DNA of 64,000 nucleotides from GCA_000165345.1 CM000431.1:640001-704000; one strand, 5' to 3'; positions 1 through 64,000 are shown, counted from the first letter of the stretch. Notes: a model not told the origin generated them from the letters alone. Translations and numbers: made by a program.

Positions 1-265
1 AAGATAGGTTATTTGACAAACAAATTGGATTGTTCTCGACTGCATTAAAATGGTGAGTATTTTTACCTCAATTATTCTTTATATCTCCCTTAGGAATGAA
101 GCTACAGGAAGTCGTTTGTTTATCAATGCAATAGTTTCTGGAATATTTGCGTCATCTGCAGGCATATTTGCAAATTTAGGAGTAAGTTTCAATTACTTTG
201 TAAAGAATGTTAATCCAAAAAGCTGGAATACCAGTTCTCTGTACTTTTATATACAGCTCATTTAA
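1..265 (+). CDS. 3' end of a Tim17/Tim22/Tim23 (PRAT) family membrane protein; partial, start lies upstream of the window. Model: join(3..52,94..265) with a 41-nt intron 53..93 (GTGAGT...CCCTTAG).
   Basis: Frame 3 is open from nt 3 and reads DRLFDKQIGLFSTALKW; removing 53..93 joins it in frame to the listed ORF (NEATGSRLFINAIVSGIFASSAGIFANLG...). GLFST...NAI(I/V)xG(F/I)FxxxAG matches the Tim17 TM2-TM3 core (yeast Tim17 GGLFSTFDCAVK...WNAIIAGFFTGGALA) as I remember it. Confidence 0.4.
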
Positions 266-528
266 TTTACCAAAGTAAAGCTACAAATTTCTTTTCCGAA
301 CAAGATTGCAGGAAACAATTTATTATGAGTAAATATTCTGGAGTAGTGCTACTTTTAGGAATAATATTTTCTAAATATAAAGCAAGTAAAAAGCATTCCA
401 ATAAGAGGGACTCAAATACTTTGCACAAAGGCTGATAAACTATGAACGAATTACAAATAAATTTCAGCAAAATGCTATTCCAATAGTTTGTTTTGAAAAA
501 TTTTTTTCTCTAAACATTTTCTATACGA

Positions 529-1281
529 ATGCCCACGTCTACAGAGAGAATTAAAAAAAAAAATACAAGCCAGGATTGGGGTAAGTTACTTTCCGATTAA
601 TAATAAAATATTTTACTTTATAAAGAACCTGGTTCAATGACGCTAACAAACAATGTACCAGTTGTTGATAATTGGGAGGATTTGTTAAATAGTGATAATG
701 AGGATTCCTTTAATAACAACTCAGAATTCCAGACAAATTCGAATAATATTACTTCAACTTCAATTTCGAACAAGTGTTTTAATGACTATGAGGAACAGAG
801 AAGATGCCAAGAGCTCGTTGAAGAGATGGATGGAAATGTAATGGACGATTTGTTTGACGGATTTGTAAGCCAACGCAAATCCACAAGTAAACTTCCCGGA
901 AATAATTCTACTCATGCAATTTCGAATTTAAGCAACCAACAAGATGCGTTTAGTAATTTGAACTTGAACTCATATGGGAAAGTTGAAACTACTGCGTTTA
1001 AAATTGCAGAATGTATCAAGCCAGCTTTGGCTAAAAGTCCAGCCTGGCTCCGATTTATTGATATTTGCCTAAATGAGATTTTTCAAAAACTAGATTTAAA
1101 AGATCTGAAGACCTTAAAGAAAAAAGTTGACTTACAACTGTCAATTAGAGAAAAGGAGGAAAGAGAGAAGTCTCAGCAAAAGAAGAAGCCCAACGATTTT
1201 AGCACTCTTTCCAAAAACTTTAGGGAGGAACTCGACATATTTGATGGAATAGACTCCCTCGATGAGTCTGATGATTATTAG
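529..1281 (+). CDS. Acidic protein resembling eIF3 subunit j (Hcr1). The listed ORF is 637..1281; a possible upstream exon 529..580 joins through a 45-nt intron 581..625 (GTAAGT...TATAAAG).
   Basis: Acidic DNWED N-terminus; the central WLRFIDICLNEIFQKLDLKDLKTLKKK and acidic C-terminus DIFDGIDSLDESDDY resemble eIF3j (human LEVLVRDVCISLEIDDLKKITNSL...DDLADYGG). The upstream ATG exon joins in frame (MPTSTERIKKKNTSQDW|EPGSMTLTNN). Confidence 0.4.
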
Positions 1282-11401: not shown

Positions 11402-12231
11402 ATGTTTTTCAATAATCACAAAGAAAAGATATCATCTGAATTGGTAAGTTACTGCCTATCAAATTTGGGTTATTGTAATTTCTGTAGCTTAAGAATATAG
11501 GGAAGGATGGCATTTCTATTGAACTAACAAATATTGAACCATACATTATTAAAGATTTGATGCAATCATTCATTTACACTGAGGGTAAGTCGGACAACTA
11601 GATATAACGAATAAAATAAATTGATGTAGATATTAATACCACCAAACAACGAAATTCCAATTTTCCGAAGTTTCAGTTTAGTTTTTCTAAGGGTGACAAT
11701 TTTAATAGTCAATTATACGGCGGCTGTCCGAGCTGTGGTAATTCGTATGACTTCTTGTTTTTATTAGATGCTTTTGAGAACGAGTACACATCATCGTCTC
11801 ACAATTTGATTGAAAACCATTATTTGAGATGCAAAATATGTAATTACCGATTTTTGAAATTACACAATCATAATTCTTCAGATTCTACAATTAATACTAA
11901 TAGTAATTCTTTTGAGAAGAAGCGCATTTATATAACAGGTATTAGAAAATCGTTATGTTTTGGAACTAACAATAAGTGGTGGGCAAAGTCTATTAGCGTT
12001 GGGAAAAGAATAGAAAAAGAGTCAGATAATAAGTCAGGGAAATCCAATAGTGTTATTAGGGTTCTTGATGCTATGCATAAAAAGAAGGCTCCTAAAATCC
12101 AGGAAATTTGTCCTGAATGCTCACATAACGAGGCATTCTTTACTCAATTCCAGGCTAGATCTGCAGATGAGGGTACTACAGTCATGTATGAATGTTGTAA
12201 ATGCCAGCATCGTAGGGTTATTAATAATTAA
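11402..12231 (+). CDS. RNA polymerase zinc-ribbon subunit of the RPB9/RPA12/RPC11 family (closest to A12.2). Spliced model: join(11402..11443,11500..11584,11630..12231); only the last exon is secure.
   Basis: C-terminal TFIIS-type ribbon CPECSHNEAFFTQFQARSADEGTTVMYECCKCQHR. The N-terminal ribbon CPSC...CKIC lies in frame upstream of the track's TTG start with no in-frame ATG back to a stop at 11617, so an upstream exon is required. GTAAGT at 11585 with acceptor ...GATGTAG at 11629 gives a 45-nt intron; a second GTAAGT at 11444 follows an ATG mini-exon. Confidence 0.6.
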
Positions 12232-16067: not shown

Positions 16068-17699
16068 TTAGTTTTTTTCTCTGTTGCGATTCGTTACACA
16101 GTTTTGAACTTTAGATGCAAACCTTAGAGAGCTAATAGTTTCGTTTATGGAATGTGAAGAAGGTGAGATGTGCACCAACATAGCTGCTTTACTATTTCCT
16201 CCAAGTGAATTTTTGAGAACCATTGTAAGCTTACTATTTCTAAAGGGTATATGATCCTTCCCCTGATTAATAGACTGAATTACATCTCCTAATGCACTCA
16301 ATGACTTATTGATAAACTGAGCTTCCTTCATTCTTTCTCCTGCAACACCGCTTTTGTTTACCCTTTCTGACCCGGCTAGGTCGATTAATGATAAGGTTGA
16401 ACTTATATTCCTTGAATCGGGGTTTGACTCGTCTGCGTCTTGACAGTGTTTTCCAGATATCTTCAACTGAATAATACTGTGCGATCTTGAACTTCTTTCA
16501 TTGCAATCTGTTGATGCCTCTGATCGGTGTTTGTGTGCCATTTTTAACAAATTATTCACATCGTTGATATTATTGACTTTGATTAAATTAATTCCAACAA
16601 TAGTTGCAGAACCAAATTGGTCTATTTTTACTTCCGAATTTTTCTGTTTAGGTGTAGTTAGGTCACGGATAGTTTCGTTATAAACTTCAATTGCGGAATA
16701 TTCAAGGTTATATGTCCATCCCTTTTCACAATTCCTATCTATATTATCAAAAATTAACTTAAGAGCTCTAGGAATCATCCCATATTCATTTACATCTTTC
16801 CCACCCAACATAGTGAATGTTTTTCCACTTCCAGTTTGTCCATAGGAAAATAAAGAAACATTGTAACCATCTAAAGCCGACTGTATTAGTTGTGAAACTT
16901 CTTCAAAAACCTCATGTTGAGTCGAAACTGAAGAGAAAATGTAGTCAAATTTAAATGTTAAAAGATTTGTACCTCTGGTAGTTGTGTTATTTATAGTAAT
17001 TGTTGATGCATCCTCCGAAATATCATACTTAATGCAAAAATCTTGCTCCGAAATTGTAGGAGGCCTAACTCTGCAAAATACTCGTATATTACCCCTTATA
17101 TCTTGTAATTCATTAAATAACTTTCTCCTGGTATCATTTAACAATATTGAGTGGCGCTGCAAGCGATACTTCCATGATAAAATTTCTTGGTTTGCAAGCT
17201 CTAACTGTTGAGCTAATGATAATCTTGCCGTATTTGCCCAATATTTTTTCTTAATAGTTTCATTTAAAACTTCTAACTTATTTTCAAGGTCTCTTTTTAT
17301 TATTGATTTCTCAGAAAACGTTTCTTTTAGTTCATTATTTTCGTTGGTTGCTTCATCATGCAACTGTTTTAATTTACCTAATTTTGTTTCAATTCTCAAT
17401 AGTTGATCTTTTTTATTGTCTAACATTTCCTTAAGATTTTTCTTTAATTCGTTCATTTCGTTCGTGTAAGATTTATGATCTTCCACCATAACGGATAATT
17501 TTTTTTTAATTGAATTAATTGTGTTACTTTTTTCTTTGTTGATCAAAATAAGATGGTCGGCATCATTTTGTCTTCTAATCAACAAATCCGAAAGTTCAGC
17601 TTGCTTACTTTCGAGATCATTGATTTTTTCTTGGAAAAATATATTAATATCCCCTTGTCTAGATTTATTATATCTTATTTGTGTATTTTCTCTTTTCAT
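16068..17699 (-). CDS. Kinesin-14 (C-terminal motor, Kar3/Ncd/KIFC1 type).
   Basis: N-terminal coiled coil, then neck IRVFCRVRPP, a P-loop GQTGSGKT, and switch regions SSRSHS and DLAGSE at the C-terminus. The track starts at GTG 17717; first ATG at 17699. Confidence 0.9.
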   Translation of the reverse strand: MKRENTQIRYNKSRQGDINIFFQEKINDLESKQAELSDLLIRRQNDADHLILINKEKSNTINSIKKKLSVMVEDHKSYTNEMNELKKNLKEMLDNKKDQLLRIETKLGKLKQLHDEATNENNELKETFSEKSIIKRDLENKLEVLNETIKKKYWANTARLSLAQQLELANQEILSWKYRLQRHSILLNDTRRKLFNELQDIRGNIRVFCRVRPPTISEQDFCIKYDISEDASTITINNTTTRGTNLLTFKFDYIFSSVSTQHEVFEEVSQLIQSALDGYNVSLFSYGQTGSGKTFTMLGGKDVNEYGMIPRALKLIFDNIDRNCEKGWTYNLEYSAIEVYNETIRDLTTPKQKNSEVKIDQFGSATIVGINLIKVNNINDVNNLLKMAHKHRSEASTDCNERSSRSHSIIQLKISGKHCQDADESNPDSRNISSTLSLIDLAGSERVNKSGVAGERMKEAQFINKSLSALGDVIQSINQGKDHIPFRNSKLTMVLKNSLGGNSKAAMLVHISPSSHSINETISSLRFASKVQNCVTNRNREKN

Positions 17700-20900: not shown

Positions 20901-21523
20901 CTATAATAAGCAACATAAGAAGCGATAACTTTGAAAAATCTAAAATTGAAGCAATCAAATCACGTGAGCTTTGCCAAACAAATATTATTGTAATACAATT
21001 AATCATTTCATGCACTGAATTTGCAATTAAAGTTCTAGAAGACAAATTAATTCCATTGATTACAGAATTTATTGAATTTATTTTTTCAAGCCATGAAGCC
21101 ATTACACTTATGGATGATAGAGAGTCAGAATTAAATTCGGAATTTCAAAAAATGTGTATATCTACATTAGAAGTTCTCTACTATTTCACCAAATTTTACC
21201 TTAAATTGAATTCAGCTGAAATCAAGTTTGAAACGTTAAACAACATAGTAAACTTACTAATATCTCCAATTAATTCGTTCCTTTCAGTTAAATGGAGAAT
21301 TGTTGTCTCAAAAACCATATTTCATATATATTTTAAATTCCCATGTATTATTAATTCCAAGTTAATCGTTCAAAGTAAAAACTATAACACAACATGCCTA
21401 AAAGAAATAGTTATCATGATTAAATTAGCGGAAAATAACTTAACTGCAATTTTTAACAATATTAGTATTATTTCTGAAACTCGAGGAGAATTTAATTTAA
21501 AGTTGAAAATTAACAAATTTTAG
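17918..21523 (+). CDS. Large hypothetical protein, 1201 aa, Asn/Ile/Leu-rich, probably helical-repeat.
   Basis: 3.6-kb uninterrupted ORF. Confidence 0.7.
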   Translation: MSNNTFEEVPIRGTIKLLHDKLSLLFRLSILESTEILLEIDESISKCDGYCISSCAEVIVPPIIMAIHNCIRNKLHPTNELSGSNHNKNLNTKSSLQLEELLKILLNVLQKMNSKTSKIIFSRISNAFFDILYVITEVLRIFIYERNEFIIEYSIKIAHLDFNIFWEYWEHKNTNTNINQHLIIPVIIQFLLSIAIPSKNEFNYSKETQTLALKLLSEIPGIIENNDLLIKVYPGVIQRLSIQLINSIEKGSSKKLIELSLFAIIEWISNCLSNLNHETKNICSNMENIKNTAKILNYIIKYKTLELNLDCSYKSGNINYLNDSVCMLKVKSLFASITRMCFTDLFDIFYDSFDELLITSLDFLISLKSEGNYNNPLIDNVLNSISKNQSNRKMRSFFSNYSRKFGINFDQSNTEKFTSVELNEENNLTDFIRKLTLYIGFHKTENQFFKHIISTFCAEKAFNFFLIILISNLNLTMYEKSIKDSKKNFSFNFKNRSLNKENYILKAIDLTERTSNNIFQNYSYNIPNKNESIISNDKLEAFQLYGDLFTLTFFNIKRFGFEKSKMISSLFIKSISISILDLNYEKMECKYILQCITQHFVKLCNSERDKHIPLQHFILYILVCNATQLILNQSVFGNPLYNELPNFETKNLPNIIISWFNFAIEELSIELIQESMSNYTEINRNILLILLGNLLLIARNIGLDGEIFIKKLNKVITQLISLYGYGSPITKKIAAYILNQIFLMLGYSSYKFSINTIINEYSLEIIRSLEIMYYKGYSEEKVDLILTALQHCKLGFILELSDLIEKFNDININNNPWIFEFIAIITKRIANCILTYWDNFSFHKIFKNAQISAFKQKLESFQTLNTTIKEIYYEYFLDYITSQENDIPNFYPTQNFINSIKSQNIDHLDLFEQELLEEIDISNEISKIRKVIERMINIIYSYTSESDEKNFSIQDHRYLSTYSLLNCIFILSTETTCLFPYANMIIPGIINQWMAIISNIRSDNFEKSKIEAIKSRELCQTNIIVIQLIISCTEFAIKVLEDKLIPLITEFIEFIFSSHEAITLMDDRESELNSEFQKMCISTLEVLYYFTKFYLKLNSAEIKFETLNNIVNLLISPINSFLSVKWRIVVSKTIFHIYFKFPCIINSKLIVQSKNYNTTCLKEIVIMIKLAENNLTAIFNNISIISETRGEFNLKLKINKF

Positions 21524-38875: not shown

Positions 38876-39442
38876 CTACTTGTTATTTATTTCTTCTTGA
38901 GATTCCTTTACGCATTTCTGTACCATTTTATAGTATTCTAATTTGTTCTCAATATAAAGTTGTGCAGCTTCTGCATTTGCAGGAGAATTAGGGTTCGGGT
39001 CATTTAATAAGGATTGAATACAGGTAAGAATCGAGCATACATCAAGAACAGGGCTCCAGTGCTGTTGCAAAATATCTAGGCATATATTTCCATTGTTATA
39101 TATATTCGGATGGAAAACTCTTGTCACGAATCTTATCTTAGGAGCTTTATTGGGGTATTCTTCAGTAAATCTAATATCAAGTTTGAATATTCCACCTTCC
39201 CATACTGTTCCCTCAGGTCTATAATAATTAATTCATGATAAAATATCTAAAGTTGAGAAACTAACCCAAAAATTACCGCATCCCAATGTAACATCTCATC
39301 GTCAATAGGTGTTCCGCAGATACCATGCGGTGGATTATTTGAAAGTTTTGCGAAGTCTCTTAGAAGCCTACGTTTCTATCAAGTATAAAGTGAAAAATAG
39401 TTAATTAAATATAATAAATAAACCTACGGCTTGAAAAGACAT
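38876..39442 (-). CDS. RAD6: Ubiquitin-conjugating enzyme E2 Rad6/UBC2 (UBE2A/B ortholog). Three exons: complement(join(38876..39218,39266..39375,39428..39442)).
   Basis: The spliced product MSFQA|[37 protein letters not shown]|[60 protein letters not shown]...[14 protein letters not shown] aligns residue-for-residue with Rad6 (MSTPARRRLMRDFKRM...[20 protein letters not shown]...). Introns are 52 nt (GTAGGT...GATAG) and 47 nt (GTTAGT...TTATAG). The ORF track shows only the last exon, from a GTG. Confidence 0.85.
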
Positions 39443-45656: not shown

Positions 45657-47034
45657 CTATATCCACGTTCTTCTGAGTATTTTACTTGGTAAATAAGTAT
45701 TCACCAAATAATCACTAGAAATTGATTGGAATGCTTCTAATTCGCATTTATAATTATGTTCATACATCAGTTTGCATTGCCGACAAAGTATCTCACATTC
45801 CTATTTGTGTTAATTGTTACTTGTACTTAATGTTCGTGCTTACCTTTATTGCTGGATCTTCTATTAGTGATTTCAAGGTGGATCTATCTTTTTCGGATAG
45901 AATAACCCTTGTCTACAAAAAATTAACTTAACTTTTATAGCATTATAACTTACATCGGATGGAATGAGTTCTGTATCTTCAAAATGTATTCCCAAATAAT
46001 ATATACTTGGACAAGCTAAAATATATAAAACAAAATTATGGAGTAAAGTTTATTGTCATACCTGCCAATTGTGATTCAAAATTGCTTGAACCTCGTACGT
46101 ATGTTAGGTATATATTGATGCCATGTGGATCAAAGTCCCCTAAATATAAAGCCTATCAGAACTTATAAGAGGTAATAAAAATAAGTGAGAACTTACTGTA
46201 ATTCCAGATTTACATATAATGTCGGAGACTAATTTCCTAGTTGAAATATCTGGAAAGCCTTTACCTACTTTGAATTATTTATAATAAAAACATTTTTTTA
46301 CATACCCGTAATTACCAAACAAGGAATCCTATTATAAATCTCTCTCTCCATTAAATACTGAAATATCGAAGCCTTTTCAATAACTAATAAATATTTCACA
46401 TTTGTCTTTATTATATATTTACTGTCATTTGGATCAAATATATCTGTGATCGTTGCTCCTGACACTCCAAGTTCTTCAACGTCTAAAAAATCTGAATTCT
46501 AAGAATAATTTGAAAATATAAAAATGTGAACCCTTACTTTATAAATTAGTTTTATTCTTCCGCCAATCATTCCTTTTGGAGAAGGGAATAATCCAAATGA
46601 TATTCTTGGTATCTGCAGGATTTCTGAAAAGTCTAAATTTCAGGTTTATTAATTATCATTATTTTGTTTACTTACTTTGCACTATTCTATTTACTTGGGA
46701 TTGACTCTATAAAGGGTGATTTATTATAAATATTTGTAGTTTAGTACTTACCTTAAAAAGCCAACTATTATGATAGTATAACTCTCTTAATGTTAATTTT
46801 CTACCTCTTTTCTGTGCACTATGTAAAACGTTCGCAATTGAAGTAACTAATTAAATTGTTTAAGTAAATTATTTAAAAAACCAACTTACTCTTTGCAATA
46901 TTAATTACATCATTTTTTCTTCTTGATGAGCCAATAATATATTGATCGCATTGTAAAGATTCAATCCAATTTAGTGTATTAAAAGATGTAGATTTCCCCA
47001 AATTAAATAAAACAATATCTTCAATAAAATTCAT
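45657..47034 (-). CDS. SPO11: Meiotic recombination protein SPO11 (topoisomerase VI subunit A family). Ten exons: complement(join(45657..45800,45844..45912,45954..46015,46062..46152,46197..46264,46306..46498,46538..46632,46676..46706,46752..46846,46890..47034)); 330 aa.
   Basis: Hand-spliced on the minus strand. Exon 2 carries the catalytic-Tyr motif QKRGRKLTLRELYYHNS. Exons 5-6 carry the TOPRIM core KYLLVIEKASIFQYLMEREIYNRIPCLVITG|KGFPDISTRKLV. Exon 7 carries YLGDFDPHGINIYLTYVRGS. Exons 8-10 end ...LIPSD|TRVILSEKDRSTLKSLIEDPAIK|...KCELEAFQSISSDYLVNTYLPSKILRRTWI*, matching the mouse SPO11 C-terminus (KAEIEALSSLSSDYLSRVYLPNKLRFGGWI) as I remember it. There are nine introns of 39-46 nt with donors GTAAGT x5, GTAAGG, GTATGT, GTATGA and GTAAGC, and YAG acceptors; phases are consistent and total 993 nt. 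The ORF track shows nothing here except a 69-aa antisense fragment. Confidence 0.85.
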
Positions 47035-47214: not shown

Positions 47215-50200
47215 ATGGTAAAAATAACGAATGATGAAAATGAAAGGACGATTATATTGAATAATAAAAATGAAGAAAGCTTTATCCATTCATTCAAAAG
47301 ACTTAATGTAATAAAAACAGCAAGATATTCTCTTTTATTTTTTTTACCAAAAAATCTATATGATCAATTTAACAATGTTGCAAATATTTACTTTTTGGCA
47401 ATAGGTATTATGCAAATGGTACCTTCAATATCATCATCTGGTGGAATCCCTACAATAGCTCTTCCTTTAATATGTATGTTATGTTTTTCTGCGGCGCAAG
47501 CAGCATATGAAGATTGGAAAAGACATAAAGCAGACTCAGAAATAAACAACCTTCCTACGTATGCATATGATCCAATTAAAGGTAATTTTGCAGTCACAAA
47601 ATGGGGTGATTTGAAGAACGGAGATCTTGTAATTGTTAAAAATAGAGAAATTTTTCCTGCTGATATGGTATTACTTGCCTCTAGTCAAAATGATAATCGA
47701 GTGTTTGTCGAGACTGCCTCAATGGACGGTGAAACAAACCTAAAGCTTCGAGAAAGCCCTAGAATTCTTTTTAATAATGGAGTTAGAAATATTAGTGATA
47801 TCCTTACTATTTCAAAAGGTATAATGTATTGTGGGGAGCCAAATGATCACCCAAAAAAGATACATATAAATTCAAAATTTGTGTTGAAAAATTCTAAGGA
47901 CGATGAAAAAGAACTCAATTTTTCGTGTAATTCATCAAATATGTTATTACGTGGGTGTAAGCTAAGAAACACCTCATGGGCACTTGGCGTTGTGGCATAC
48001 ACTGCTCATGAAACGAAAATTTATCAAAGCAGTTTTAGATCAGCCCCACATAAAATGAGTAATGTACAATCTTTATATAACCAAGTAACTATTGCATCAT
48101 TCATCTTCTTGTTGTTTATTTGCCTTTCTTTTGGAATTATTGTAGCTTGCATTGATTACTTTGGAGGACCAGAATTGTCGAAAAAGTTTATTCCAATTGG
48201 GAAAATGGAGCCCAACGAAAGTGTGATTAAAACTTCAATAATTACTTTTTTTACCTGGATTATTGTTCTTGCAAATCTAATACCTATTGGAATGTTTTTT
48301 TATTTAGTAATATCCAAAGTTTCACAAGCAATAATCATTGCTTCAGATTCTAGATTAACAAGTCAAAACTCTACTGTTGTAAGGAATTCAGATTTAAATG
48401 ACGAGCTAGGTCAGGTATCTTATATTTGTACTGACAAAACAGGAACATTAACAAGGAATTACATGGAATTCAAAACTGTTTGTATTAACGGAAACGTATA
48501 TGGAGGTAACCATCACGAAATGAGGCAAGATACAGATCAATTGAGTATTGAACACACAGAAAAACAAAAAATAACTCCGCATGTTGACATGGAAGATGAA
48601 TTACTGAGAAAAAACTTAAAAGAAGGAAATAAGGAAGAGATAGAAATACTATTGAATTTTGCTCTAAACCATACAGTATTAATACAAGAAAATGAGGTTG
48701 ATTTAGATGAACCACCTCTCTATTCGGCAAGTTCAACTGATGAGGAAGCGCTTGTATTAGCTTCCCACCACTTTGGAATATCACTAGTTTCCCAAAACTG
48801 CTCAAAAAGTACAATTAAATTTTCTGGGATAGGAACTAACCAAACTTCTGTTGAGTTTGAAACATTGCTAAGATTTGAATTTGACCACGCAAGAAAAATA
48901 AGTTCAGTATTGGTAAAATTCCCAAAAAAAATCTTTAGTTACGAGTCAAATGATTCAGATGGTTATAGGTATATCCTATTTTCTAAAGGATCGGAATCTG
49001 CAATAAAAGAATGTTGTGTTAATCAAGAAAGTTTGGATATTGCTAATGAAACATTTGAATATGCAACAGAATTTGCTAGTAATGGCTATAGGACACTGTG
49101 TTTTGCAAAAAAAGAACTTAGTGAAAATGAAGTTATTGATATTTTAAATAACTTTAAACATGACAATAAAATTCATTTAGAAGAAGTTAGAACATTCTTT
49201 GAAAGCAACTTGACTCTACAGGGGTGTTCCGGAATTGAAGATATCTTACAGCACCGTGCCCAGGAAACGATTGAGTCACTGATTGCTTCAGGTATCAAAG
49301 TTTGGATGCTTACCGGCGATCGACAAGAAACTGCAATAAACATTGCAGTTAGGGTTGGAATCATTTCAGATGAAATGGAAGTTATTATTTTTGATGAAAA
49401 TAAACTTGAATCATTTTCAAATAATTTAATTAAAGAATTTCCCGATAGATCAAGTTTTTTGAATAGAGAAAATGGCTCATTCAATTTCTCAAATGTAGTA
49501 TTAGTCATTGATTCCAAAATATTGGAAAAGGCCCTAGTAATTGATGAAGCTAAATTTGCAAAAATTGCAACAAAATGTTCATCTGTAGTTTGTTCTAGAG
49601 TTACACCTCAACAAAAAGCACAAGTTGTCAAGTTAATTCAGGAATTTACAAAGCAAAGAGTATTAGCAATTGGTGATGGCGGAAATGACTGTACTATGTT
49701 ACAAACTGCAAATGTTGGTGTTGGCATCCATGGTTCAGAAGGCATGCAAGCTTATAATGTATCTGATTTTGGTATTTCCCAATTCTGTCATCTTCAACCT
49801 TTGGTTCTTATACACGGAAGGCTCTGTTACAGAAGAACATCTATTTTGGTGCTATATAACCTTTACAAATGTTTTACTCTAAATATTGTGAGTGTTTATT
49901 TTGGTTTTGCATCGCTTTTCACAGGGTCTAAATTGTTTTTTGAATTACTATTCCAGTTATATAACTTTCTATATACTTCAGTACCTCCCATAATTTTTGC
50001 AACATTTGATTCAGATATTCCAATTACATTACCATATGATTATCACGAGCCACTTTATTTATTAGGCATAACCAAGCCATTCTTTTCATTAAAAATATTT
50101 GGGATTTGGTCCATGAATGCTGTTTTCCATGCAGCGGTATCATTGTTCATTCCTTACTTTATTTTGGGAGGCAACAATCCAATATCAAATGATGGATACG

Positions 50201-50751
50201 TTCCAGATTTTTGGACTACAGGGCTAGCCGTTTATACCAATGTTGTAATTGTTGTAAATACCAAGATATTACTCGAAGCATTTACTTCATGGAGTCTTGT
50301 TTTATTTTCAATAATAATATGTGCCTTTCTATTTTTTCTATCAATTTTGTGTTTCCCCTACATTTTCCATATACCAGAATTGGAATTAGCAGCTAAAAGG
50401 GCAATCATTACCCCAATGTTCGTCATTACAATTGTTATATCAATTACAGTTACTATTTCACTAGATTGGATATTAAAAATATATAAAAGAAGCTTATACC
50501 CTGAAATATCTCACTTGTTGCAGAATAAGTGGTATAAAATATACAAAAAAAAATATGAATCTCACAGGCAACTTCTTCTGAAACACTTATCACTTAATTG
50601 GCTCGAGTCCATGAGAAGATTAAAAAGAAAGAAATCGGCAGAAGTTGAACAAATTCAAATAAGGAAAAAATCATCTGATATAATTGGATATGCATTCAAC
50701 TATCCAGATGTTAACGTGAGTCAGCTGTTTCTATCAAATAAAACAATATAA
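47215..50751 (+). CDS. Phospholipid-transporting P4-type ATPase (flippase).
   Basis: DKTGTLT phosphorylation site, TGDRQETAINIA, GDGGNDCTMLQTANVGVGI, and the P4-type N-terminus ARYSLLFFLPKNLYDQFNNVANIYFL; 10 TM segments. Confidence 0.9.
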   Translation: MVKITNDENERTIILNNKNEESFIHSFKRLNVIKTARYSLLFFLPKNLYDQFNNVANIYFLAIGIMQMVPSISSSGGIPTIALPLICMLCFSAAQAAYEDWKRHKADSEINNLPTYAYDPIKGNFAVTKWGDLKNGDLVIVKNREIFPADMVLLASSQNDNRVFVETASMDGETNLKLRESPRILFNNGVRNISDILTISKGIMYCGEPNDHPKKIHINSKFVLKNSKDDEKELNFSCNSSNMLLRGCKLRNTSWALGVVAYTAHETKIYQSSFRSAPHKMSNVQSLYNQVTIASFIFLLFICLSFGIIVACIDYFGGPELSKKFIPIGKMEPNESVIKTSIITFFTWIIVLANLIPIGMFFYLVISKVSQAIIIASDSRLTSQNSTVVRNSDLNDELGQVSYICTDKTGTLTRNYMEFKTVCINGNVYGGNHHEMRQDTDQLSIEHTEKQKITPHVDMEDELLRKNLKEGNKEEIEILLNFALNHTVLIQENEVDLDEPPLYSASSTDEEALVLASHHFGISLVSQNCSKSTIKFSGIGTNQTSVEFETLLRFEFDHARKISSVLVKFPKKIFSYESNDSDGYRYILFSKGSESAIKECCVNQESLDIANETFEYATEFASNGYRTLCFAKKELSENEVIDILNNFKHDNKIHLEEVRTFFESNLTLQGCSGIEDILQHRAQETIESLIASGIKVWMLTGDRQETAINIAVRVGIISDEMEVIIFDENKLESFSNNLIKEFPDRSSFLNRENGSFNFSNVVLVIDSKILEKALVIDEAKFAKIATKCSSVVCSRVTPQQKAQVVKLIQEFTKQRVLAIGDGGNDCTMLQTANVGVGIHGSEGMQAYNVSDFGISQFCHLQPLVLIHGRLCYRRTSILVLYNLYKCFTLNIVSVYFGFASLFTGSKLFFELLFQLYNFLYTSVPPIIFATFDSDIPITLPYDYHEPLYLLGITKPFFSLKIFGIWSMNAVFHAAVSLFIPYFILGGNNPISNDGYVPDFWTTGLAVYTNVVIVVNTKILLEAFTSWSLVLFSIIICAFLFFLSILCFPYIFHIPELELAAKRAIITPMFVITIVISITVTISLDWILKIYKRSLYPEISHLLQNKWYKIYKKKYESHRQLLLKHLSLNWLESMRRLKRKKSAEVEQIQIRKKSSDIIGYAFNYPDVNVSQLFLSNKTI

Positions 50752-58462: not shown

Positions 58463-61400
58463 TCAATATGATTGATGCCACGCCTTTCCAAGCCCCTTAC
58501 CTCTGAAAACCTGCTTATTCATTGACTTTCCTAAAATTTGCTTAAGAACCTTACACTTACTCATAACTTTTTGTAAATCATGTTTCAGATGTATGTATGA
58601 CTCACTAATTTTATTTATTGAATTACTTCTAATATTCAATGCTCCATTTGAAGTAGCTGTGCTTTCCAAGTAATCTAATATAGTTACAATTTCAATTATT
58701 GATAATTTTACTTTGTGAGATGATGAACTTAATGTCCCTTCACAAAATGCATTTAAATCAAGAGCCCCAATTGCATTGGCATCAACCAAAAAATCTAAAT
58801 ATGAAACTGAAAAGTCAATGCTGTAAGGTGGGCCACAAAATTCTGACAACTTTATTGTAAAATCTCTAATTAAGGTTTTATCTAGATATTTAATCCCAAC
58901 TTTACTCATATAGGCAAGTACTGCTCCGTATAATCCACCCCCAATCAGGTAAACAAAAAAGTCAATGATCCAACGCCTTTTTTCAGACTTCGTTGAGGCT
59001 AAAGAGTTAATTGTACAGACGCTAATTGAAGTTTGATCTTGTAAACCGTGTTCTAAACATAGTCTGAGAAGGTGGAAAACACAGATCCTTTTCTTTGGGT
59101 GCCATTGAGTAATATGCTTAATAATTACAACCATCGAAGAAGAAAGAGTAATTAGTGGACTACTTCCATTCATTCCTGAAAAAAGAAAAATTTCGATATA
59201 CCTCAATACAGCACTGGCCCCAATCGGTGTAGTAATCAAATGATCTAGGTATGCCCACTTTAGCTCATCTTTTATTAAATTATCATGAATTATATTGTAA
59301 ATTCTAAATAACTCCTTCCTAGCTCTATTTTTAAATCGATCACATAAATCTCTTATATTTTGAAATTGCTCCTTCATTTTTTTCGCTTTATTTTTTGGTA
59401 ATAATCGTAGTGACCCTAAAATCTTCTGAGTATGAACGTTTCGGTAAATACATGAATCAATTGTACTCTTACATCCAATTGTAGAATCCGTTTGTTTTTT
59501 GGATTCTACTGGTATTGAACTTGCATTCCTAGTATTGGTAGTTGTGTTTTTTATTTTATTTGGAAGCCAATAGTGGTTTTTTTCTTTATTCATAGAACTA
59601 TTCGATTCTGAAATAGAATCAATTGAATTTGATGACTCTGAAGAAATAAAATCTGAAAGTGTGTCAACATTGTATTTTATCCTCTCATCGCACTCAAATT
59701 CATCTTCAGAATTACTCCAGATATCTTGAATTGAATTATTAACATGAGAATTAACTTCTTTTTTAACAATATTCCACTCCTTTTGTTCTTCTAAAAATAA
59801 AAGCAATTCATATGGTGAATAGACAGATAATAGCAGAAGTAAATCAATTGTTTTGCTCTGCTCTTCAGGAGTTAACCAAATGCTTTGGTTTACAAGAATA
59901 TCAATTAGTGTGTCTAATAATGCGCTTTCTCTCAACGCATCCATTGGTGGGCGTTCAGGACCTATTTTCAATCTTTGAATTTCATCTGAGCCAGGGATAT
60001 CACCCATTCTACTTACAGATGGCATGTCAAATATTGTTTCATTGTAAGAATTGATGTCGCAATTAGAATTTTTTGTATCATATTTTTGTGAGCCATAAGT
60101 ATTATTTTCGGAATCGCTGGAACAATCGCTGATTTTCCTTTGAAAGGTTTCTGATGGATCAATATATGGGTCCTGATTTTTATTCAGACAATTCGTCTGT
60201 AGAAAACTCTCTAAAGAGCAGTTTCTTGGAGAAACATTCAATTCTAAGTCTCTAAGAGAAAATTGCAAAGATCCCAAAGATGCCCATTCTTTGGTGTTGG
60301 CAGAAATTTCATTTTGGGCGGAGTTAAATCTTTCGTTTGAGTTTTTTTTAATAGATACATTTGAATATTTTTTTTCTGAATCTATTTCGTTGTCTTTGGT
60401 ATTTTTAATTCTTTTTCTTTCATAAAGGAGCATTTGCAAAGATTCAAACCTGTCAATTATTCCGCTTAGCATATCATAAAGTGAAGAAATTTGATTTGGA
60501 TTCATTGAAAATTTAATAGCTGACTCAAAACCTCCTAATCCACCGTTAGCTGATCCTTTTTCTTCCATTGTAGATATGTCCATCTTGAAAATCGTTTTAC
60601 ACAATTTGAATAATTCAGGAAAATTTGTCAAGTTTGTAAACAAAAGATTTAACTGAGCGACTCTTGGTTCTTTCAATGTGACTCTTACATAGTGATAAAG
60701 CATTTGGCTCAACCTTCGACATCCCGAATAGTCGCCCCTCCAAACAATCATGTAGTGCAGTAATGCTTGTGCATAAAAATATGCATTTTCTGATTGGCTT
60801 AATGTGGAGCAAATTTCTTGAATGATGTTAGAAGTATAATAATCGCTTGAATTATTTTTCCCATCAATAGAATACAAAGGGTTATTGATTGTTCCACTGA
60901 GTGGTAATAAATTTGTACCTTGTAGCGCTGCCTCTATTGTTTCATCAGTTAATAAAAAGTCTGCAAGCAATTCCGTTACGTTTTTAGTAAATACACTAAA
61001 GTTACTTGTTGAAGAGAAGTTCATTTTTTTTGGCAAACAGTCGATATTTGGATTTGTCTTAGAGAAGTTATGTAAGTCTTGTAAGAAAGCCAATAGAAAT
61101 TCCGACTTTCTATTCCTTGCGAACAGCTTTTGAATAGAATTTACAACCGCAGGATGTTTCATCAAACTCCAATAACAAGGAGGTGGTTGCCAGCCGCCTT
61201 GCCCAAGTAGATCTCTATTATTGTCCATATATTTCCTTAAAGTTTCTGTATTAAAATACCTTTCAATGAGCATTGCCATTGGTTCGACCATATTTTCCGA
61301 AAATAAAGTTTTGTTAGAATTACTTCTTCCGGTTTTCTGTGTTTTTACTTTTTTTTTACTGTTAATTTTAGATTGGATTGGCGTAATATAATTAATACCT

Positions 61401-61753
61401 ATATTGTCACCATTGTTAAATGAATCTGATTTATAGTCCAAAATATCTATCCATTCAGACAAAATCTGGCACATAGGTGCATAGCCTATGTAATTTTGCA
61501 CTATTAAACTAAGACATTCAGCAATTAACTTTTGTATGTTAAAGGAAGAATCTTGTTGGCTGTCTTGAAAAGGACGTACTTCAGACGATTTATTATTTTC
61601 TGAAAATGATTTAAATGAGATATATGTTTGAATGCTTTCTATTATATCATCGTCCATAATAGAGTCTAGTGCACAAATATTCTTTTTTGCATTTTCATAC
61701 TCTTCTTTTGATATACCCTCCCCAATTAGTTTGAAATTTTCTGATATACTCAT
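58463..61753 (-). CDS. Large hypothetical protein, 1096 aa.
   Basis: 3.3-kb ORF with an ATG at 61751-61753; no recognisable domain. Confidence 0.65.
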   Translation of the reverse strand: MSISENFKLIGEGISKEEYENAKKNICALDSIMDDDIIESIQTYISFKSFSENNKSSEVRPFQDSQQDSSFNIQKLIAECLSLIVQNYIGYAPMCQILSEWIDILDYKSDSFNNGDNIGINYITPIQSKINSKKKVKTQKTGRSNSNKTLFSENMVEPMAMLIERYFNTETLRKYMDNNRDLLGQGGWQPPPCYWSLMKHPAVVNSIQKLFARNRKSEFLLAFLQDLHNFSKTNPNIDCLPKKMNFSSTSNFSVFTKNVTELLADFLLTDETIEAALQGTNLLPLSGTINNPLYSIDGKNNSSDYYTSNIIQEICSTLSQSENAYFYAQALLHYMIVWRGDYSGCRRLSQMLYHYVRVTLKEPRVAQLNLLFTNLTNFPELFKLCKTIFKMDISTMEEKGSANGGLGGFESAIKFSMNPNQISSLYDMLSGIIDRFESLQMLLYERKRIKNTKDNEIDSEKKYSNVSIKKNSNERFNSAQNEISANTKEWASLGSLQFSLRDLELNVSPRNCSLESFLQTNCLNKNQDPYIDPSETFQRKISDCSSDSENNTYGSQKYDTKNSNCDINSYNETIFDMPSVSRMGDIPGSDEIQRLKIGPERPPMDALRESALLDTLIDILVNQSIWLTPEEQSKTIDLLLLLSVYSPYELLLFLEEQKEWNIVKKEVNSHVNNSIQDIWSNSEDEFECDERIKYNVDTLSDFISSESSNSIDSISESNSSMNKEKNHYWLPNKIKNTTTNTRNASSIPVESKKQTDSTIGCKSTIDSCIYRNVHTQKILGSLRLLPKNKAKKMKEQFQNIRDLCDRFKNRARKELFRIYNIIHDNLIKDELKWAYLDHLITTPIGASAVLRYIEIFLFSGMNGSSPLITLSSSMVVIIKHITQWHPKKRICVFHLLRLCLEHGLQDQTSISVCTINSLASTKSEKRRWIIDFFVYLIGGGLYGAVLAYMSKVGIKYLDKTLIRDFTIKLSEFCGPPYSIDFSVSYLDFLVDANAIGALDLNAFCEGTLSSSSHKVKLSIIEIVTILDYLESTATSNGALNIRSNSINKISESYIHLKHDLQKVMSKCKVLKQILGKSMNKQVFRGKGLGKAWHQSY

Positions 61754-61910
61754 GTATTGTTCTTAAGAATTTCATTTCTCCAATTGAATTGTCTTAATTT
61801 CCATTAAAATAAAGTTCTCCCCTCCAACAAATAACCTCCCGGCAATAATGAAAAATTGTCAATATGAAATAAAATAGTTTTTGGTTACTTAATAATCAAA
61901 TGTGGTATAA

Positions 61911-64000
61911 ATGGAAATGGACTTGATCCCAACAAATATTAGTTTTAATCCATTTAGAATTGAATCTTTAATTGACGATCATACTGCGGTTTCATTATAT
62001 AGAGGTATTTATGAATGTCTTGAATTAATTAAATGCGGAGAAACTCACAAATTAAGTTTTGAATTTTTATATAGAACATGTTATAGACTTACAATAAACA
62101 ATTATGGTGGGATGCTCTATTGCGGTGTTTTGGATTTTATTGTAGAGATGTTAGAAAAAGAAAGAAAAGACGAAACTTTAGATGAAATTGTGAATTTTTG
62201 GAAAACTTTTGAAATAACAATGGATACTTTACATGATGTCTTAATGTATTTAGAGAAGAATTTTATTATTTCAAATACGAAGGTTCCTATTAAAACTGCT
62301 GGTATGTCAATTTTCTTGAAATATTATCTTCTTTCAAGCAATAGGATTGTAAATGTTATCAATAACGTACTTGAACAATTGAATTATATTAGAAAATCAA
62401 AAAAATTAGATATAAATTTTTCAAAAGAAATTAGATTTATTGTCGAACAAATATTGAGTCTTCCTTCAATTGAAGTAAATATTAAGAGTTTACCAGAAGA
62501 TATAGTTGATACGATCAGGTTTAATGAAGTCTGCTGTCAAAGTACAATTATAGAAGATGACGAGCTCATTTCATTAAAGTCAAAAATCCCACTAATTAAC
62601 CGTGCTTACGATAATAAAATACTCATCTTTACGTATAAATTTAATCACAAAGCACCAGAATTTAACTGGAGAGATTTTGCCATTTTCAATCAATTCTTTA
62701 TGCCATACTTTTTAGCCAAATCTAGGGAATATCATGAAAAAGAATTTGAAATTTCTCATAGTTTGGATAAAGATTCAATTTCGCAAATAAGAAATTATTT
62801 GAGTAAATGTGAACAAAACTATATGTTCGAAAAAATGATTGTTGAAAATTGTCTAGTTTTTCAAGTTTGGGAAGAGCTTATTAAAGAAATGGATAAGGTT
62901 TGGATACACCCTTTTTTTGAAAGATTTTCAAGTATTAATTTGTTCGAGTTTTTTTTGATTGGAGCCAAAAACGATCTACAACAGTTATTTAGGATTTTAA
63001 GTCGTGTACCAGAATGTCTAGAACAATTAAAGAATTCTCTTAAGCAATTTTTTTCGATAAGATTAGACAAAATATTCCCTGTTGATGAGGTGTTTATTAA
63101 TGATGGATTTAAAAAATTTATTGACGAAGTTCATCTGTTTAAGTGTAGAAGTGAATTTATTTTTATAGAATGCTTTAAAAATAATAGTATGTTTAATCAA
63201 GTTTTAAGTGTTTCTTTTGAAGACTTTTTTCTCAATAGAAACGCAACGACAACAATTAATTTGATAGTGAATGGATTCGACATTGTACTTAGATCTTTGT
63301 ACAATGATAACAAAATTGATGAAAATAACAAACATCTAGATACTCTATTTTGGTTATTCAAATATGTTTCTAATAAGAGTTTGTTTGAAATCAAGTACAG
63401 AACTCTTCTGTGTAAGAGATTAATGGAATTTGATGTAAATAAAAGAAATATAGAGCACAACATAATAATAAAATTAAGAGGAGAATGCGGTCATGGGTAT
63501 ACATTAAAACTTGAAGGCATTCTAGCAGATATGATACAATCAGAGATTTTAAATATGGAGTTTCAACAAATTAATAATGAGATTTCTGTTCTTTCAAATA
63601 CTATTATTAATTACAAAGTAATAACCCCGAACTTTTGGATAACTCATCCATATATTAACTTTTCTTTCCTAAATAATCTTAATTGCAAACTAGATAACTT
63701 TACACAATTTTTTTATTCAAAATATGAAAGAAGAAAACTTCAGTGGCATCTTGGAGAAGGTAGTGCAATTATTAATGTTAATCTTAAAAGCCGATTTAAT
63801 AAAAGTTTTACTATTGAATGTTCGACCATTCAAATGTTTATATTAGATATTTTTAATACATTTGACTTTATTTCTTTTGAGGAAATGCAGAAGATTATCG
63901 GATGTAGTGATATAAATCTATTAAAACACAACTTATTGTGCCTTGTTTTTGAAAATGAACCTTTATTGAATATTATTCCGATAACGAGGTGGAAAGAGAT
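61911..64000 (+). CDS. Cullin family protein; partial, the 3' end lies beyond the window.
   Basis: I re-translated 61911-64000 codon by codon in frame 0: 696 codons and no stop. It has the cullin N-terminus and the cullin-homology signature IIIKLRGECGHGYTLKLEGILADMIQSEIL ... KLQWHLGEGSAIINVNLKSRFNKSFTIECSTIQMFILDIFN. It is absent from the ORF track, presumably because ORFs without a stop are not reported. Confidence 0.8.
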   Translation, partial: MEMDLIPTNISFNPFRIESLIDDHTAVSLYRGIYECLELIKCGETHKLSFEFLYRTCYRLTINNYGGMLYCGVLDFIVEMLEKERKDETLDEIVNFWKTFEITMDTLHDVLMYLEKNFIISNTKVPIKTAGMSIFLKYYLLSSNRIVNVINNVLEQLNYIRKSKKLDINFSKEIRFIVEQILSLPSIEVNIKSLPEDIVDTIRFNEVCCQSTIIEDDELISLKSKIPLINRAYDNKILIFTYKFNHKAPEFNWRDFAIFNQFFMPYFLAKSREYHEKEFEISHSLDKDSISQIRNYLSKCEQNYMFEKMIVENCLVFQVWEELIKEMDKVWIHPFFERFSSINLFEFFLIGAKNDLQQLFRILSRVPECLEQLKNSLKQFFSIRLDKIFPVDEVFINDGFKKFIDEVHLFKCRSEFIFIECFKNNSMFNQVLSVSFEDFFLNRNATTTINLIVNGFDIVLRSLYNDNKIDENNKHLDTLFWLFKYVSNKSLFEIKYRTLLCKRLMEFDVNKRNIEHNIIIKLRGECGHGYTLKLEGILADMIQSEILNMEFQQINNEISVLSNTIINYKVITPNFWITHPYINFSFLNNLNCKLDNFTQFFYSKYERRKLQWHLGEGSAIINVNLKSRFNKSFTIECSTIQMFILDIFNTFDFISFEEMQKIIGCSDINLLKHNLLCLVFENEPLLNIIPITRWKE

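Follow-up and report, generated by a model that had tools for sequence, protein, structure and literature searches.

The window analysed, a stretch of 64,000 nt, belongs to Cryptosporidium parvum chromosome 3. Its sequence is the same as that of the IOWA-ATCC assembly, its first 14.1 kb match overlapping C. parvum DNA (L004) without a difference, its proteins have exact matches in NCBI C. parvum assemblies, and the names and accessions deposited for C. parvum (CPATCC_0012xx, CPHLJ_3g2550) locate it on chromosome 3. The window contains 35 genes, of which 29 are single open reading frames and six have introns. All six intron-bearing genes encode proteins of 155–338 aa, and every gene longer than 340 aa in the window is uninterrupted. 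The large genes include the following.

22449..28136, plus strand, RPB1, single exon, 1895 aa; seven Rpb1 Pfam domains and the CTD complete and in order
32674..38037, minus strand, 1787-aa hypothetical protein, single exon
17918..21523, plus strand, 1201-aa hypothetical protein, single exon
47215..50751, plus strand, P4-ATPase (phospholipid flippase), 1178 aa, single exon
58463..61753, minus strand, TH1/NELF-D-like protein, 1096 aa, single exon
28174..30933, minus strand, diacylglycerol kinase (DGK), 919 aa, single exon
16068..17699, minus strand, kinesin, 543 aa, single exon

Each of these products is identical to a deposited single-exon product, and no convincing hidden in-frame intron was found in any of them, which bears out the claim of the sequence-only reading that the giant genes are intronless.

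The RPA12-like, RAD6 and TRAPPC6 genes have two, two and three introns, respectively.

11402..12231, plus strand, RPA12-like (TFIIS zinc-ribbon), 246 aa, 3 exons; identical to deposited QOY42607.1
11444..11487, plus strand, RPA12 intron 1, 44 nt; 59 nt in C. andersoni, position conserved
11585..11629, plus strand, RPA12 intron 2, 45 nt; 82 nt in C. andersoni, position conserved
38876..39442, minus strand, RAD6/UBC2 E2, 155 aa, 3 exons, exon 1 of 15 nt; identical to deposited QOY42619.1
39376..39427, minus strand, RAD6 intron 1, 52 nt, GTAGGT..TAG; 58 nt in C. andersoni, position kept
39219..39265, minus strand, RAD6 intron 2, 47 nt, GTTAGT..TAG; 54 nt in C. andersoni, position kept
42066..42783, plus strand, TRAPPC6, 196 aa, 4 exons, TRAPP domain 2–153/154; identical to deposited QOY42622.1
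42308..42350, plus strand, TRAPPC6 intron 1, 43 nt, GTTAGT..TAG; 63 nt in C. andersoni, position kept
42469..42510, plus strand, TRAPPC6 intron 2, 42 nt; 59 nt in C. andersoni, position kept
42704..42745, plus strand, TRAPPC6 intron 3, 42 nt, divisible by three and stop-free

The spliced products of these three genes and of the UbiA gene described below, four of the six models, are identical to deposited proteins of the IOWA-ATCC annotation, whose introns are stated to be 100% RNA-seq supported (PMC8744675). The spliced RAD6 product covers Pfam UQ_con 1–139/140. Transcript evidence was obtained directly for RPA12 intron 2 only: its 45 nt are missing exactly from a 725-nt transcript-like ENA contig (L031), which comes from a close relative about 97% identical to the window and not from C. 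parvum itself. The last 13 nt of RPA12 intron 1 still stand at the 5′ end of this contig. The C. andersoni counterpart of TRAPPC6 intron 3 runs from GTAAGT to CAG over 57 nt and is annotated as coding.

Two further intron-bearing genes lie at the left edge of the window.

1..435, plus strand, 3′ part of a UbiA/COQ2-type prenyltransferase, 338 aa, 4 introns; start about 750 nt before the window
53..93, plus strand, UbiA intron 3, 41 nt, GTGAGT..TAG; 69 nt in C. andersoni, position and phase kept
182..222, plus strand, UbiA intron 4, 41 nt, GTAAGT..AAG; 71 nt in C. andersoni, position and phase kept
529..1281, plus strand, eIF3j-like gene, annotated as a single exon at 637-1281, 214 aa; Pfam eIF3_subunit
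581..625, plus strand, probable eIF3j 5′ intron, 45 nt, GTAAGT..AAG, on a comparative basis

Two of the four UbiA introns are inside the window and two just upstream. The UbiA/COQ2 model, built from L004, matches Pfam UbiA 1–245/250 and is identical to deposited QOY42597.1 (CPATCC_001246). A 'Tim17-like' gene had been listed among the intron-bearing genes, but a Pfam search found none in the window, where all unannotated gaps are 400 nt or shorter; the gene meant is probably UbiA/COQ2 at 1–435, the sixth with introns. In eIF3j, a candidate first exon at 529–580 would extend the protein to 235 aa. No database contains this form; the protein deposited for C. parvum has 214 aa, and the 581–625 intron is missing from every deposited C. 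parvum model. The annotations of C. andersoni and C. xiaoi contain homologous phase-1 introns of 63 nt and 46 nt, respectively, C. ubiquitum retains ATG-GAG-AAC-TGG-G/GTAAGT..AAAG/AA (slashes at the splice sites), and the same acceptor is used by a fused C. hominis model (P0068). These comparisons suggest that the eIF3j intron is probably real and, as such, a probable new intron, unannotated before in C. parvum. With ATG 529 as the start codon it would be in phase 1; otherwise it would be a 5′-UTR intron.

SPO11 has nine introns.

45657..47034, minus strand, SPO11/TopoVIA, new model, 10 exons, 330 aa
47034-46890, 46846-46752, 46706-46676, 46632-46538, 46498-46306, minus strand, SPO11 exons 1–5
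46264-46197, 46152-46062, 46015-45954, 45912-45844, 45800-45657, minus strand, SPO11 exons 6–10
46847..46889, minus strand, intron 1, 43 nt; position common to C. andersoni and T. gondii
46707..46751, minus strand, intron 2, 45 nt
46633..46675, minus strand, intron 3, 43 nt
46499..46537, minus strand, intron 4, 39 nt, GTAAGG
46265..46305, minus strand, intron 5, 41 nt, GTATGT
46153..46196, minus strand, intron 6, 44 nt; position common to T. gondii
46016..46061, minus strand, intron 7, 46 nt, GTATGA
45913..45953, minus strand, intron 8, 41 nt
45801..45843, minus strand, intron 9, 43 nt, GTAAGC

The 330-aa model matches Pfam TP6A_N (PF04406) 3–61/62 and Toprim (PF21180) 1–170/170. It aligns without gaps to a 330-aa chipmunk-genotype protein, a 331-aa C. 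andersoni protein and T. gondii SPO11, and Y73, E163 and D215/D217 are invariant across the alignment; the TP6A_N (5Y-CAP) domain thus has its catalytic tyrosine and the Toprim domain its acidic motif. The RELYY tyrosine motif, GDFDPHG and the end-to-end match with T. gondii SPO11 are features of the family; C. parvum SPO11 differs in its intron density, nine per kb of coding sequence, in a genome that is poor in introns elsewhere. The exact 330-aa sequence was missing from a collection of 15 billion proteins. The 12 deposited Cryptosporidium SPO11 models have eleven different lengths (213–331 aa), and most skip exons; in C. parvum the deposited protein has 271 aa or is split into 201 + 56 aa. 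The predicted ten-exon, 330-aa model is new and is not in the deposited C. parvum annotations. At the 5′ end the reference model uses another acceptor, 46819, which gives a 71-nt intron 1 and a protein that ends at 56 aa. This acceptor is said to be RNA-seq supported, as are the IOWA-ATCC introns (PMC8744675), and counts against our 5′ end. Ten exons is also the maximum reported for the C. parvum genome (PMC4637869).

The window thus contains 18 secure GT-AG introns and one probable one, that of eIF3j. The claim of six small genes with one to nine introns held for the counts, the eIF3j intron being probable, and failed on the Tim17-like identity; of the 'meiotic genes' said to be packed with introns, SPO11 is the only one in the window. 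In-window introns are 39–52 nt long (median 43, mean 43.5, n=19), exactly the range claimed. Canonical GT..AG ends are present in all 19 and in the two UbiA introns that lie upstream of the window. The donors are complementary to U1; GTAAGT occurs in 11 of 19, ranking first as claimed, GTTAGT in two, and GTATGT, GTAGGT, GTGAGT, GTAAGG, GTAAGC and GTATGA in one each, all departing from GTAAGT by one or two bases. Most acceptors are YAG as stated, except for those of the 182–222 UbiA intron and the eIF3j intron, which are both AAG. None of the 19 introns contains TACTAAC, ACTAAC or CTAAC, as expected from the claim that there is no yeast-like TACTAAC requirement. The loose motif YTRAY was present in 11 of 19, compared with 9.0 in shuffled sequences (P=0.22), so it is not enriched; this agrees with a published account in which C. 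parvum donors are mostly GTAAGT and the branch point is 'not clear' (PMC2483917). The splice-signal remarks of the earlier reading repeat published facts (PMC2483917). Removal of the introns leaves open reading frames that match Pfam families end to end, and retention would produce a premature stop for 16 of the 17 introns tested (two UbiA introns were left out). The introns combine a strong, U1-complementary, GTAAGT-like 5′ site with an AT-rich body and have no recognisable branch-point consensus.

All 21 introns of the six genes occur at the same codon position and in the same phase in C. andersoni. Their sequences and lengths diverge: 39–52 nt in C. parvum versus 54–95 nt in C. andersoni, with means of 43.5 nt (sd 2.7) and 67.1 nt (sd 9.7), respectively. 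The C. parvum copy is the shorter in 21 of 21 orthologous pairs (Wilcoxon p=6e-5). In SPO11, two intron positions are common to Toxoplasma. The introns are thus real, conserved and compressed, and within the window they are confined to short genes; the observation as a whole was mostly known already. Because every position and phase is kept in C. andersoni and two SPO11 positions in Toxoplasma, the introns appear to be old, predating the split of gastric and intestinal Cryptosporidium species. In the C. parvum lineage they would have shrunk to a tight minimum near 43 nt (39–52 nt). Their patchy distribution would be a relic of the massive intron loss known in Cryptosporidium, with a minority of genes holding part or all of the ancestral set and most genes, including all 23 longer than 340 aa here, holding none. 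We infer that loss proceeded gene by gene, for example by a cDNA-mediated route. Taken jointly, it is highly probable that the GT..AG segments are spliceosomal introns of the ordinary U2 type and that they have this age, compression and origin by loss.

That the segments might instead be decaying pseudogenes, assembly errors or translational recoding has nothing in its favour beyond the bare fact that the reading frames are interrupted. It is contradicted by the recurrence of each interruption, at an identical codon and in an identical phase, in independent assemblies and in species as remote as C. andersoni, by canonical GT/AG ends with U1-complementary donors, by domain matches that become full-length once the segments are removed, and by the spliced RPA12 contig, and we regard it as almost certainly wrong.

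Annotation of these genes has suffered as the sequence-only reading anticipated, its argument that tracks based on open reading frames miss or mangle them being strongly supported: RAD6 and SPO11 are omitted, and TRAPPC6, RPA12 and UbiA are cut. Calls of this kind on Logan genomic contigs lacked RAD6 and SPO11 and left 94 aa of TRAPPC6 and 125 aa of RPA12; of the four correctly spliced proteins, none has a Logan source, unlike their single-exon neighbours. Three of four C. parvum annotation sets contain a UbiA shortened to 118 aa, and in C. ubiquitum and C. felis the gene is unannotated, though found by tblastn. Introns have also been read as protein. TRAPPC6 intron 3 appears as 14 aa in older 210-aa models of C. 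parvum Iowa II, C. hominis and C. tyzzeri, a stop-free multiple-of-three intron is translated in the 217-aa C. andersoni TRAPPC6 model, and intron 1, likewise stop-free and a multiple of three, is translated in the 172-aa C. felis RAD6 model. The sparse-intron layout is known, yet it still misleads annotation, and most of the genomes deposited have a wrong model of the meiotic gene SPO11.

Intron content was compared with gene length within the window, a check proposed along with the claim of genome-wide size bimodality. Of 12 genes no longer than 340 aa, 6 have introns; of 23 longer ones, none does. The length difference between the intron-bearing genes and the rest was significant (Mann-Whitney p=0.010; median-split Fisher test p=0.019), on six of 35 genes in one window picked for looking so; the split at 340 aa gives p=0.0006, but the cut was chosen after the data had been seen. 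Outside the window the bias is weaker. A 468-aa gene 3–5 kb upstream, the first intron-bearing gene beyond the window, has about two introns. In C. andersoni, the orthologue of the 874-aa gene is interrupted after codon 7 by a 5′ intron of 67 nt. In the C. andersoni neighbourhood 9 of 30 genes have introns, including genes of 526 aa and 1108 aa, and length bias gives p=0.22. Bimodality therefore stood within the window and failed upstream and in C. andersoni, with about 71 kb of C. parvum covered, and control of intron retention by gene length across the genome would be a hypothesis; none of the papers on C. parvum introns that were consulted reports such a link. The observation of the sequence-only reading is thus partly confirmed and its interpretation partly supported.

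The size bias could be an accident of local sampling, or a by-product of expression level, gene age or conservation, and this is quite possible, if somewhat short of probable. The six genes are few, splits made without bias reach only p=0.01–0.02, and the larger intron-bearing genes upstream and in C. andersoni fit an accident. Against this, the contrast between zero introns in the intronless genes, with about 18,400 codons, and 21 in 1,500 codons would be extreme for introns spread by coding length, and when six genes were drawn by coding length, all six were short in none of 200,000 simulations. A by-product of conservation would fit the six intron-bearing genes, all deeply conserved members of the eukaryotic core, and several long intronless genes without a Pfam match (for example the 1201-, 1787- and 874-aa open reading frames), but RPB1, the P4-ATPase, DGK, kinesin and cullin are long and conserved and yet intronless. 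Alternatively, the retained introns may be under functional selection, with SPO11 splicing gated by stage or short mRNAs needing splicing for export or expression. The nine SPO11 introns keep their positions across the genus, T. gondii SPO11 also has very short introns (seven, of 53–65 nt), and retention of any of the nine leads to a premature stop; slow neutral loss, however, predicts positional conservation too, AT-rich introns give premature stops by chance, and SPO11 is a single meiotic gene. The 71-nt intron 1 that truncates the reference protein, and the RPA12 contig that lacks intron 2 but keeps the 3′ end of intron 1, would on such an account reflect splicing of these minimal introns that is regulated or inefficient. 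We consider selection unlikely, and slightly less likely still its boldest form, in which short genes throughout the genome have held on to introns at ancestral density, and SPO11 to all nine because splicing controls its expression; if that were true, unproductive or alternative SPO11 splicing outside meiosis would hold a DNA-breaking enzyme off.

Gene-by-gene loss, the reading we prefer, is set in a genome whose reduction includes intron loss and shortening (Baptista 2022, PMC8744675). Introns have been reported in 10.8% of C. parvum genes, with 2–10 exons (Isaza 2015, PMC4637869), and in 4–11% in earlier annotations (including Abrahamsen 2004, via PMC4637869); the current annotation has 1,364 CDS introns in 3,892 genes (PMC13125899 Table S1). 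The window resembles this landscape, including its GTAAGT-led donors and T-rich introns. C. parvum introns reach 2,223 nt in the current annotation (PMC13125899 Table S1), and the narrow peak is therefore documented for the window genes only. Published mean or median lengths are 61–99 nt, in contrast to the tight 39–52 nt found here, and GTAAGT makes up 58% of donors here versus 84% in the values published from the 2004 annotation.

Minimal introns are found in the nucleomorphs of Guillardia theta (42–52 nt) and Bigelowiella (18–21 nt) and in Paramecium (about 25 nt). In one published comparison, two intron-poor genomes stand out as exceptions in having no strong branch-point motif: the G. theta nucleomorph and C. 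parvum (Irimia & Roy 2008, PMC2483917). Reduced genomes with minimal introns share with the window a narrow length peak near an apparent floor, canonical GT-AG ends and a compact, AT-rich genome. In Saccharomyces, introns are few, occur mostly in short, highly expressed ribosomal-protein genes, are hundreds of nucleotides long and have a strict TACTAAC. As in the window, most genes are intronless, those with introns are short and the 5′ splice site is strong. Unlike those of Saccharomyces, the window introns are about 43 nt long, number up to nine per gene and have no branch consensus, and the only ribosomal-protein gene noted in the vicinity, S13, which lies immediately upstream, has no introns.

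Each interrupted gene of the window was modelled by hand. In addition to the eIF3j-like gene, these are:

45657-47034, minus strand: SPO11, nine introns of 39-46 nt, encoding 330 aa
RAD6: two introns, of 52 and 47 nt
TRAPPC6: three introns, of 43, 42 and 42 nt
RPA12-like: two introns, of 44 and 45 nt
1-435: 3′ end of a UbiA/COQ2 prenyltransferase gene, four introns, two of them within the window

With the introns removed, the products match Pfam families from end to end (Toprim 1-170 of 170, TP6A_N 3-61 of 62, UQ_con 1-139 of 140 and TRAPP 2-153 of 154). The 19 introns within the window are 39-52 nt long, with a median of 43 and a GC content of 15-44%, and the lengths given by the sequence-only reading were right. 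The donor is GTAAGT in 11 of the 19. The YAG acceptors of that reading are present in 17 (TAG or CAG), the two exceptions ending in AAG. No TACTAAC was found in any of the 19, in keeping with the earlier remark that no yeast-like TACTAAC requirement was seen, and a loose YTRAY branch-point motif was not more frequent than in shuffled sequences. One gene name was wrong: the sixth intron-bearing gene, called Tim17-like, is the UbiA/COQ2 3′ end. A Pfam search at E≤0.1 of all small ORFs and spliced models produced no Tim17-like gene, and there is no unannotated gap longer than 400 nt. We conclude that the end of UbiA had been mislabelled.

Four independent lines of evidence indicate that the segments are introns: deposited proteins, conservation in C. 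andersoni, a spliced ENA contig, and truncation of the product if they are retained. For RAD6, TRAPPC6, RPA12 and UbiA, the hand-built product is the same, residue for residue, as a protein deposited for IOWA-ATCC, the C. parvum reference annotation, whose authors report RNA-seq support for all introns (PMC8744675). All 21 introns, including the two of UbiA that lie just upstream of the window, occur at the same codon and in the same phase in the orthologous loci of C. andersoni (SPO11 9, RAD6 2, TRAPPC6 3, RPA12 2, UbiA 4, eIF3j 1), with unrelated sequence and different length. A 725-nt ENA contig (L031), which has approximately 97% identity with the window, follows RPA12 colinearly except that it lacks exactly the 45 nt of intron 2, and is taken as a spliced transcript. 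Retention would truncate the protein for 16 of the 17 introns tested, a set that excludes the two in-window introns of UbiA. The contig itself starts with the end of RPA12 intron 1, its nucleotides 1-13 being the last 13 nt of that intron (window 11475-11487), and it therefore derives either from partly spliced RNA in which intron 1 was retained or from a mixed assembly. The search for RAD6 homologues returned C. felis and C. andersoni only, and an exact-sequence look-up of the spliced products yielded no Logan source for any of them.

The 330-aa SPO11 model aligns without gaps to the proteins of the chipmunk genotype (330 aa) and C. andersoni (331 aa), and over its whole length to SPO11 of T. 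gondii and Neospora, down to the C-terminal KILKRTWI. The deposited C. parvum versions are 271 aa, or 201 plus 56 aa, and other lengths are also found in the models of C. hominis, C. tyzzeri, C. meleagridis, C. canis, C. xiaoi, C. ryanae, C. ubiquitum and C. felis; those deposited models that were aligned visibly skip exons or end early. The exact 330-aa sequence was not found in a collection of 15 billion proteins. IOWA-ATCC splits the gene. Its 56-aa 5′ fragment uses the same exon 1 donor as our model and an acceptor at 46819, 28 nt further downstream, and the resulting 71-nt intron (46819-46889, minus strand) leads to MHRKEVEN followed by a stop. If this junction is truly supported by RNA-seq, it represents an alternative, unproductive splice form. 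The 201-aa fragment could not be reproduced with GT-AG introns of up to 200 nt. Toxoplasma introns are typically several hundred nucleotides long; the T. gondii SPO11 gene (locus L016, 3001-4437) has seven introns of 53-65 nt, two of them at exactly the Cryptosporidium positions. SPO11 is a marker gene of the parasite's obligatory sexual cycle, and the 10-exon model, a small addition to the published annotation, corrects a gene for which C. parvum, C. hominis, C. tyzzeri, C. meleagridis and other species have faulty models.

The intron at the 5′ end of eIF3j is in no C. parvum annotation. In the C. andersoni and C. xiaoi models, codon 4 of the gene is followed by a phase-1 intron, some 10 codons ahead of the conserved VPVVDNWEDLL, and the homologous place in C. 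ubiquitum reads ATG-GAG-AAC-TGG-G/GTAAGT..AAAG/AA (slashes mark the splice sites). At 581-625 of the window TGG-G/GTAAGT..AAAG/AA is kept and the corresponding ATG is missing. The same acceptor is used in a fused C. hominis UbiA-eIF3j model. On these comparisons C. parvum probably has a real 5′ intron at 581-625, again a small addition to the annotation. Use of the in-frame ATG at 529 would give a first exon of 17 codons; otherwise the intron would lie in the 5′ UTR. The sequence ATGCCCACGTCTACA at 529-544, ahead of eIF3j, has been conserved between C. parvum, C. ubiquitum and C. felis. A stop follows it in C. ubiquitum, which makes a promoter or transcription-start element likelier than a coding role.

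That ORF tracks under-call such genes is the best supported of the earlier claims, on the evidence of both Logan calls and curated sets. RAD6 and SPO11 are missing from the ORF-style calls made on Logan contigs, where TRAPPC6, RPA12 and UbiA appear as fragments of 94, 125 and 118 aa. Three C. parvum annotations likewise have UbiA at 118 aa, and it is unannotated in C. ubiquitum and C. felis, in both of which the gene is detected by tblastn. UbiA/COQ2, a gene with a bearing on the debated ubiquinone pathway of the mitosome, is thus absent or cut short in a number of annotated genomes. In C. xiaoi (locus L028, 9205-10000) tblastn detected no UbiA in the gap of approximately 800 nt between the GYF-domain gene and eIF3j, and the gene may have been lost or moved in this species. 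Stop-free introns with a length that is a multiple of three are translated as protein in deposited models: TRAPPC6 intron 3 (42 nt) in C. parvum Iowa II, C. hominis and C. tyzzeri, whose models are 210 aa long, and its 57-nt counterpart in the C. andersoni model. The C. felis RAD6 model translates intron 1. Other models, in clusters P0033, P0046 and P0068, fuse neighbouring genes across intron-rich loci, for example a 531-aa C. hominis UbiA-eIF3j protein whose sequence was checked (P0068), a 1060-aa TRAPP-family protein of C. meleagridis and a 751-aa E2-family protein of C. hominis. The value of the spliced models is practical, and the reference annotation already has four of the six genes right.

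The window has a GC content of 31% and holds 35 protein genes and one tRNA gene, with approximately 80% covered by long ORFs and spacers of roughly 100-400 nt. Its proteins are matched exactly on a 1.10-Mb chromosome in GCA_015245375.1 (CP044420.1) and GCA_048859185.1, and its first 14.1 kb equals CP044420.1 base for base. Exact-sequence names are C. parvum QOY42xxx / CPATCC_0012xx and CPHLJ_3g2550, which place the window on chromosome 3. Two further features are:

22449-28136: RPB1, a single exon with seven Rpb1 domains and the CTD, all in order (Pfam)
6338-6412: tRNA-Arg(TCG), a single gene in a 390-nt spacer with Nup35-like and Myb genes on either side

The large genes proved intronless as proposed: the domains of RPB1 are complete, and the ORFs of 1787, 1201, 1096, 976 and 874 aa, like the P4-ATPase, DGK, kinesin and all others, are the same as deposited products with a span of 3 x (length + 1). 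The long ORFs were scanned for hidden in-frame introns, defined by a known donor and, 36-60 nt further on, a NAG acceptor. Of the 37 in-frame candidates none was convincing; GC content is coding-like in nearly all, and the sole low-GC candidate is a weak GTAAAT..AAG pair. An Rfam scan of the window found the tRNA alone, and thus no intron-hosted RNAs. The CTD heptads of RPB1 (27474-27906) are encoded by a 21-nt tandem repeat of 18.7 copies with 87% matches, which accounts for spurious long ORFs in other frames and a strongly negative GC skew (-0.23) at 26-28 kb.

Introns are present in 6 of the 35 genes, with a median length of 240 aa as against 474 aa for intronless genes (Mann-Whitney p=0.010; Fisher test on a median split, p=0.019). 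A cut at 340 aa gives p=0.0006, with a threshold picked after seeing the data. The size bimodality proposed earlier thus stands within the window. It weakens outside: about two introns are present in a gene of 468 aa that lies 3-5 kb upstream, and in the C. andersoni neighbourhood 9 of 30 genes have introns, genes of 526 and 1108 aa included (p=0.22). The label "meiotic genes" had a single gene, SPO11, as its basis. In the literature searched we found no statement on whether the presence of introns in Cryptosporidium depends on gene length. The bias is thus real in the window and a hypothesis for the genome as a whole. That it is merely local, or secondary to another variable, is quite possible, if short of probable: the upstream gene and C. 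andersoni favour this, and against it, in 200,000 simulations that drew the six intron-bearing genes in proportion to coding length, all six never fell among the short genes. Should it hold genome-wide, the bias would constrain models of intron loss in a modestly interesting way. In C. andersoni the 874-aa orthologue (locus L015, 11741-15134) has a 67-nt GTAAGT..TAG intron after codon 7; the C. parvum gene (43009-45633) has none, the corresponding seven codons being contiguous with the rest. In this large gene an intron has thus been lost or gained in one lineage.

The orthologous introns have a mean length of 43.5 nt (sd 2.7) in C. parvum, against 67.1 nt (sd 9.7) in C. andersoni, and are shorter in C. 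parvum in 21 of 21 cases, which provides a clean measure of intron compression, from approximately 67 to 43 nt. Cryptosporidium lost introns gene by gene on the simplest reading, so that the present distribution would be a residue, and loss may have been cDNA-mediated, as in the standard model. The segments themselves are canonical U2-type introns, and their minimal size suggests intron-spanning recognition with the strong 5′ site as its anchor. We regard this reading, of U2-type introns left over from gene-by-gene loss, as very probable; that retention is selected and regulatory, for example to gate SPO11, seems improbable. Published genome-wide means are 84-99 nt with a median of 61 nt (PMC2483917, PMC4637869, PMC13125899), and the genes studied here are well below both. 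Sparse introns, strong GTAAGT donors, T-rich bodies, an absent branch consensus and at most 10 exons per gene have been described for C. parvum (PMC2483917, PMC4637869, PMC13125899), as have intron loss and shortening during genome reduction (PMC8744675). The sparse short GTAAGT introns are therefore a correct rediscovery with little biological novelty, to which the SPO11 model and the eIF3j intron are two small additions, together with the quantified compression relative to C. andersoni and a hypothesis on gene length.

Several minor features were also observed. Between RPA12 and histone H3, C. andersoni (L023, 9437-9826) and C. muris (L025, 9443-9831) have a 107-aa gene with an intron of approximately 66 nt; the counterpart spacer of C. 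parvum (11013-11401, 390 nt) contains nothing coding by eye. A look-up of histone H3 returned the orthologous locus only, in ten assemblies, and no second C. parvum locus. A 72-nt GTGTGT..TAG segment with TACTAAC (42877-42948), in the spacer of 226 nt that precedes the 874-aa gene, could be a 5′-UTR intron or a chance match. The Nup35-RRM-like 140-aa gene (minus strand, 5626-6048), which two of the four C. parvum annotation sets consulted lack, overlaps the thioredoxin-domain gene (plus strand, ending at 5629) by 4 nt at their 3′ ends.
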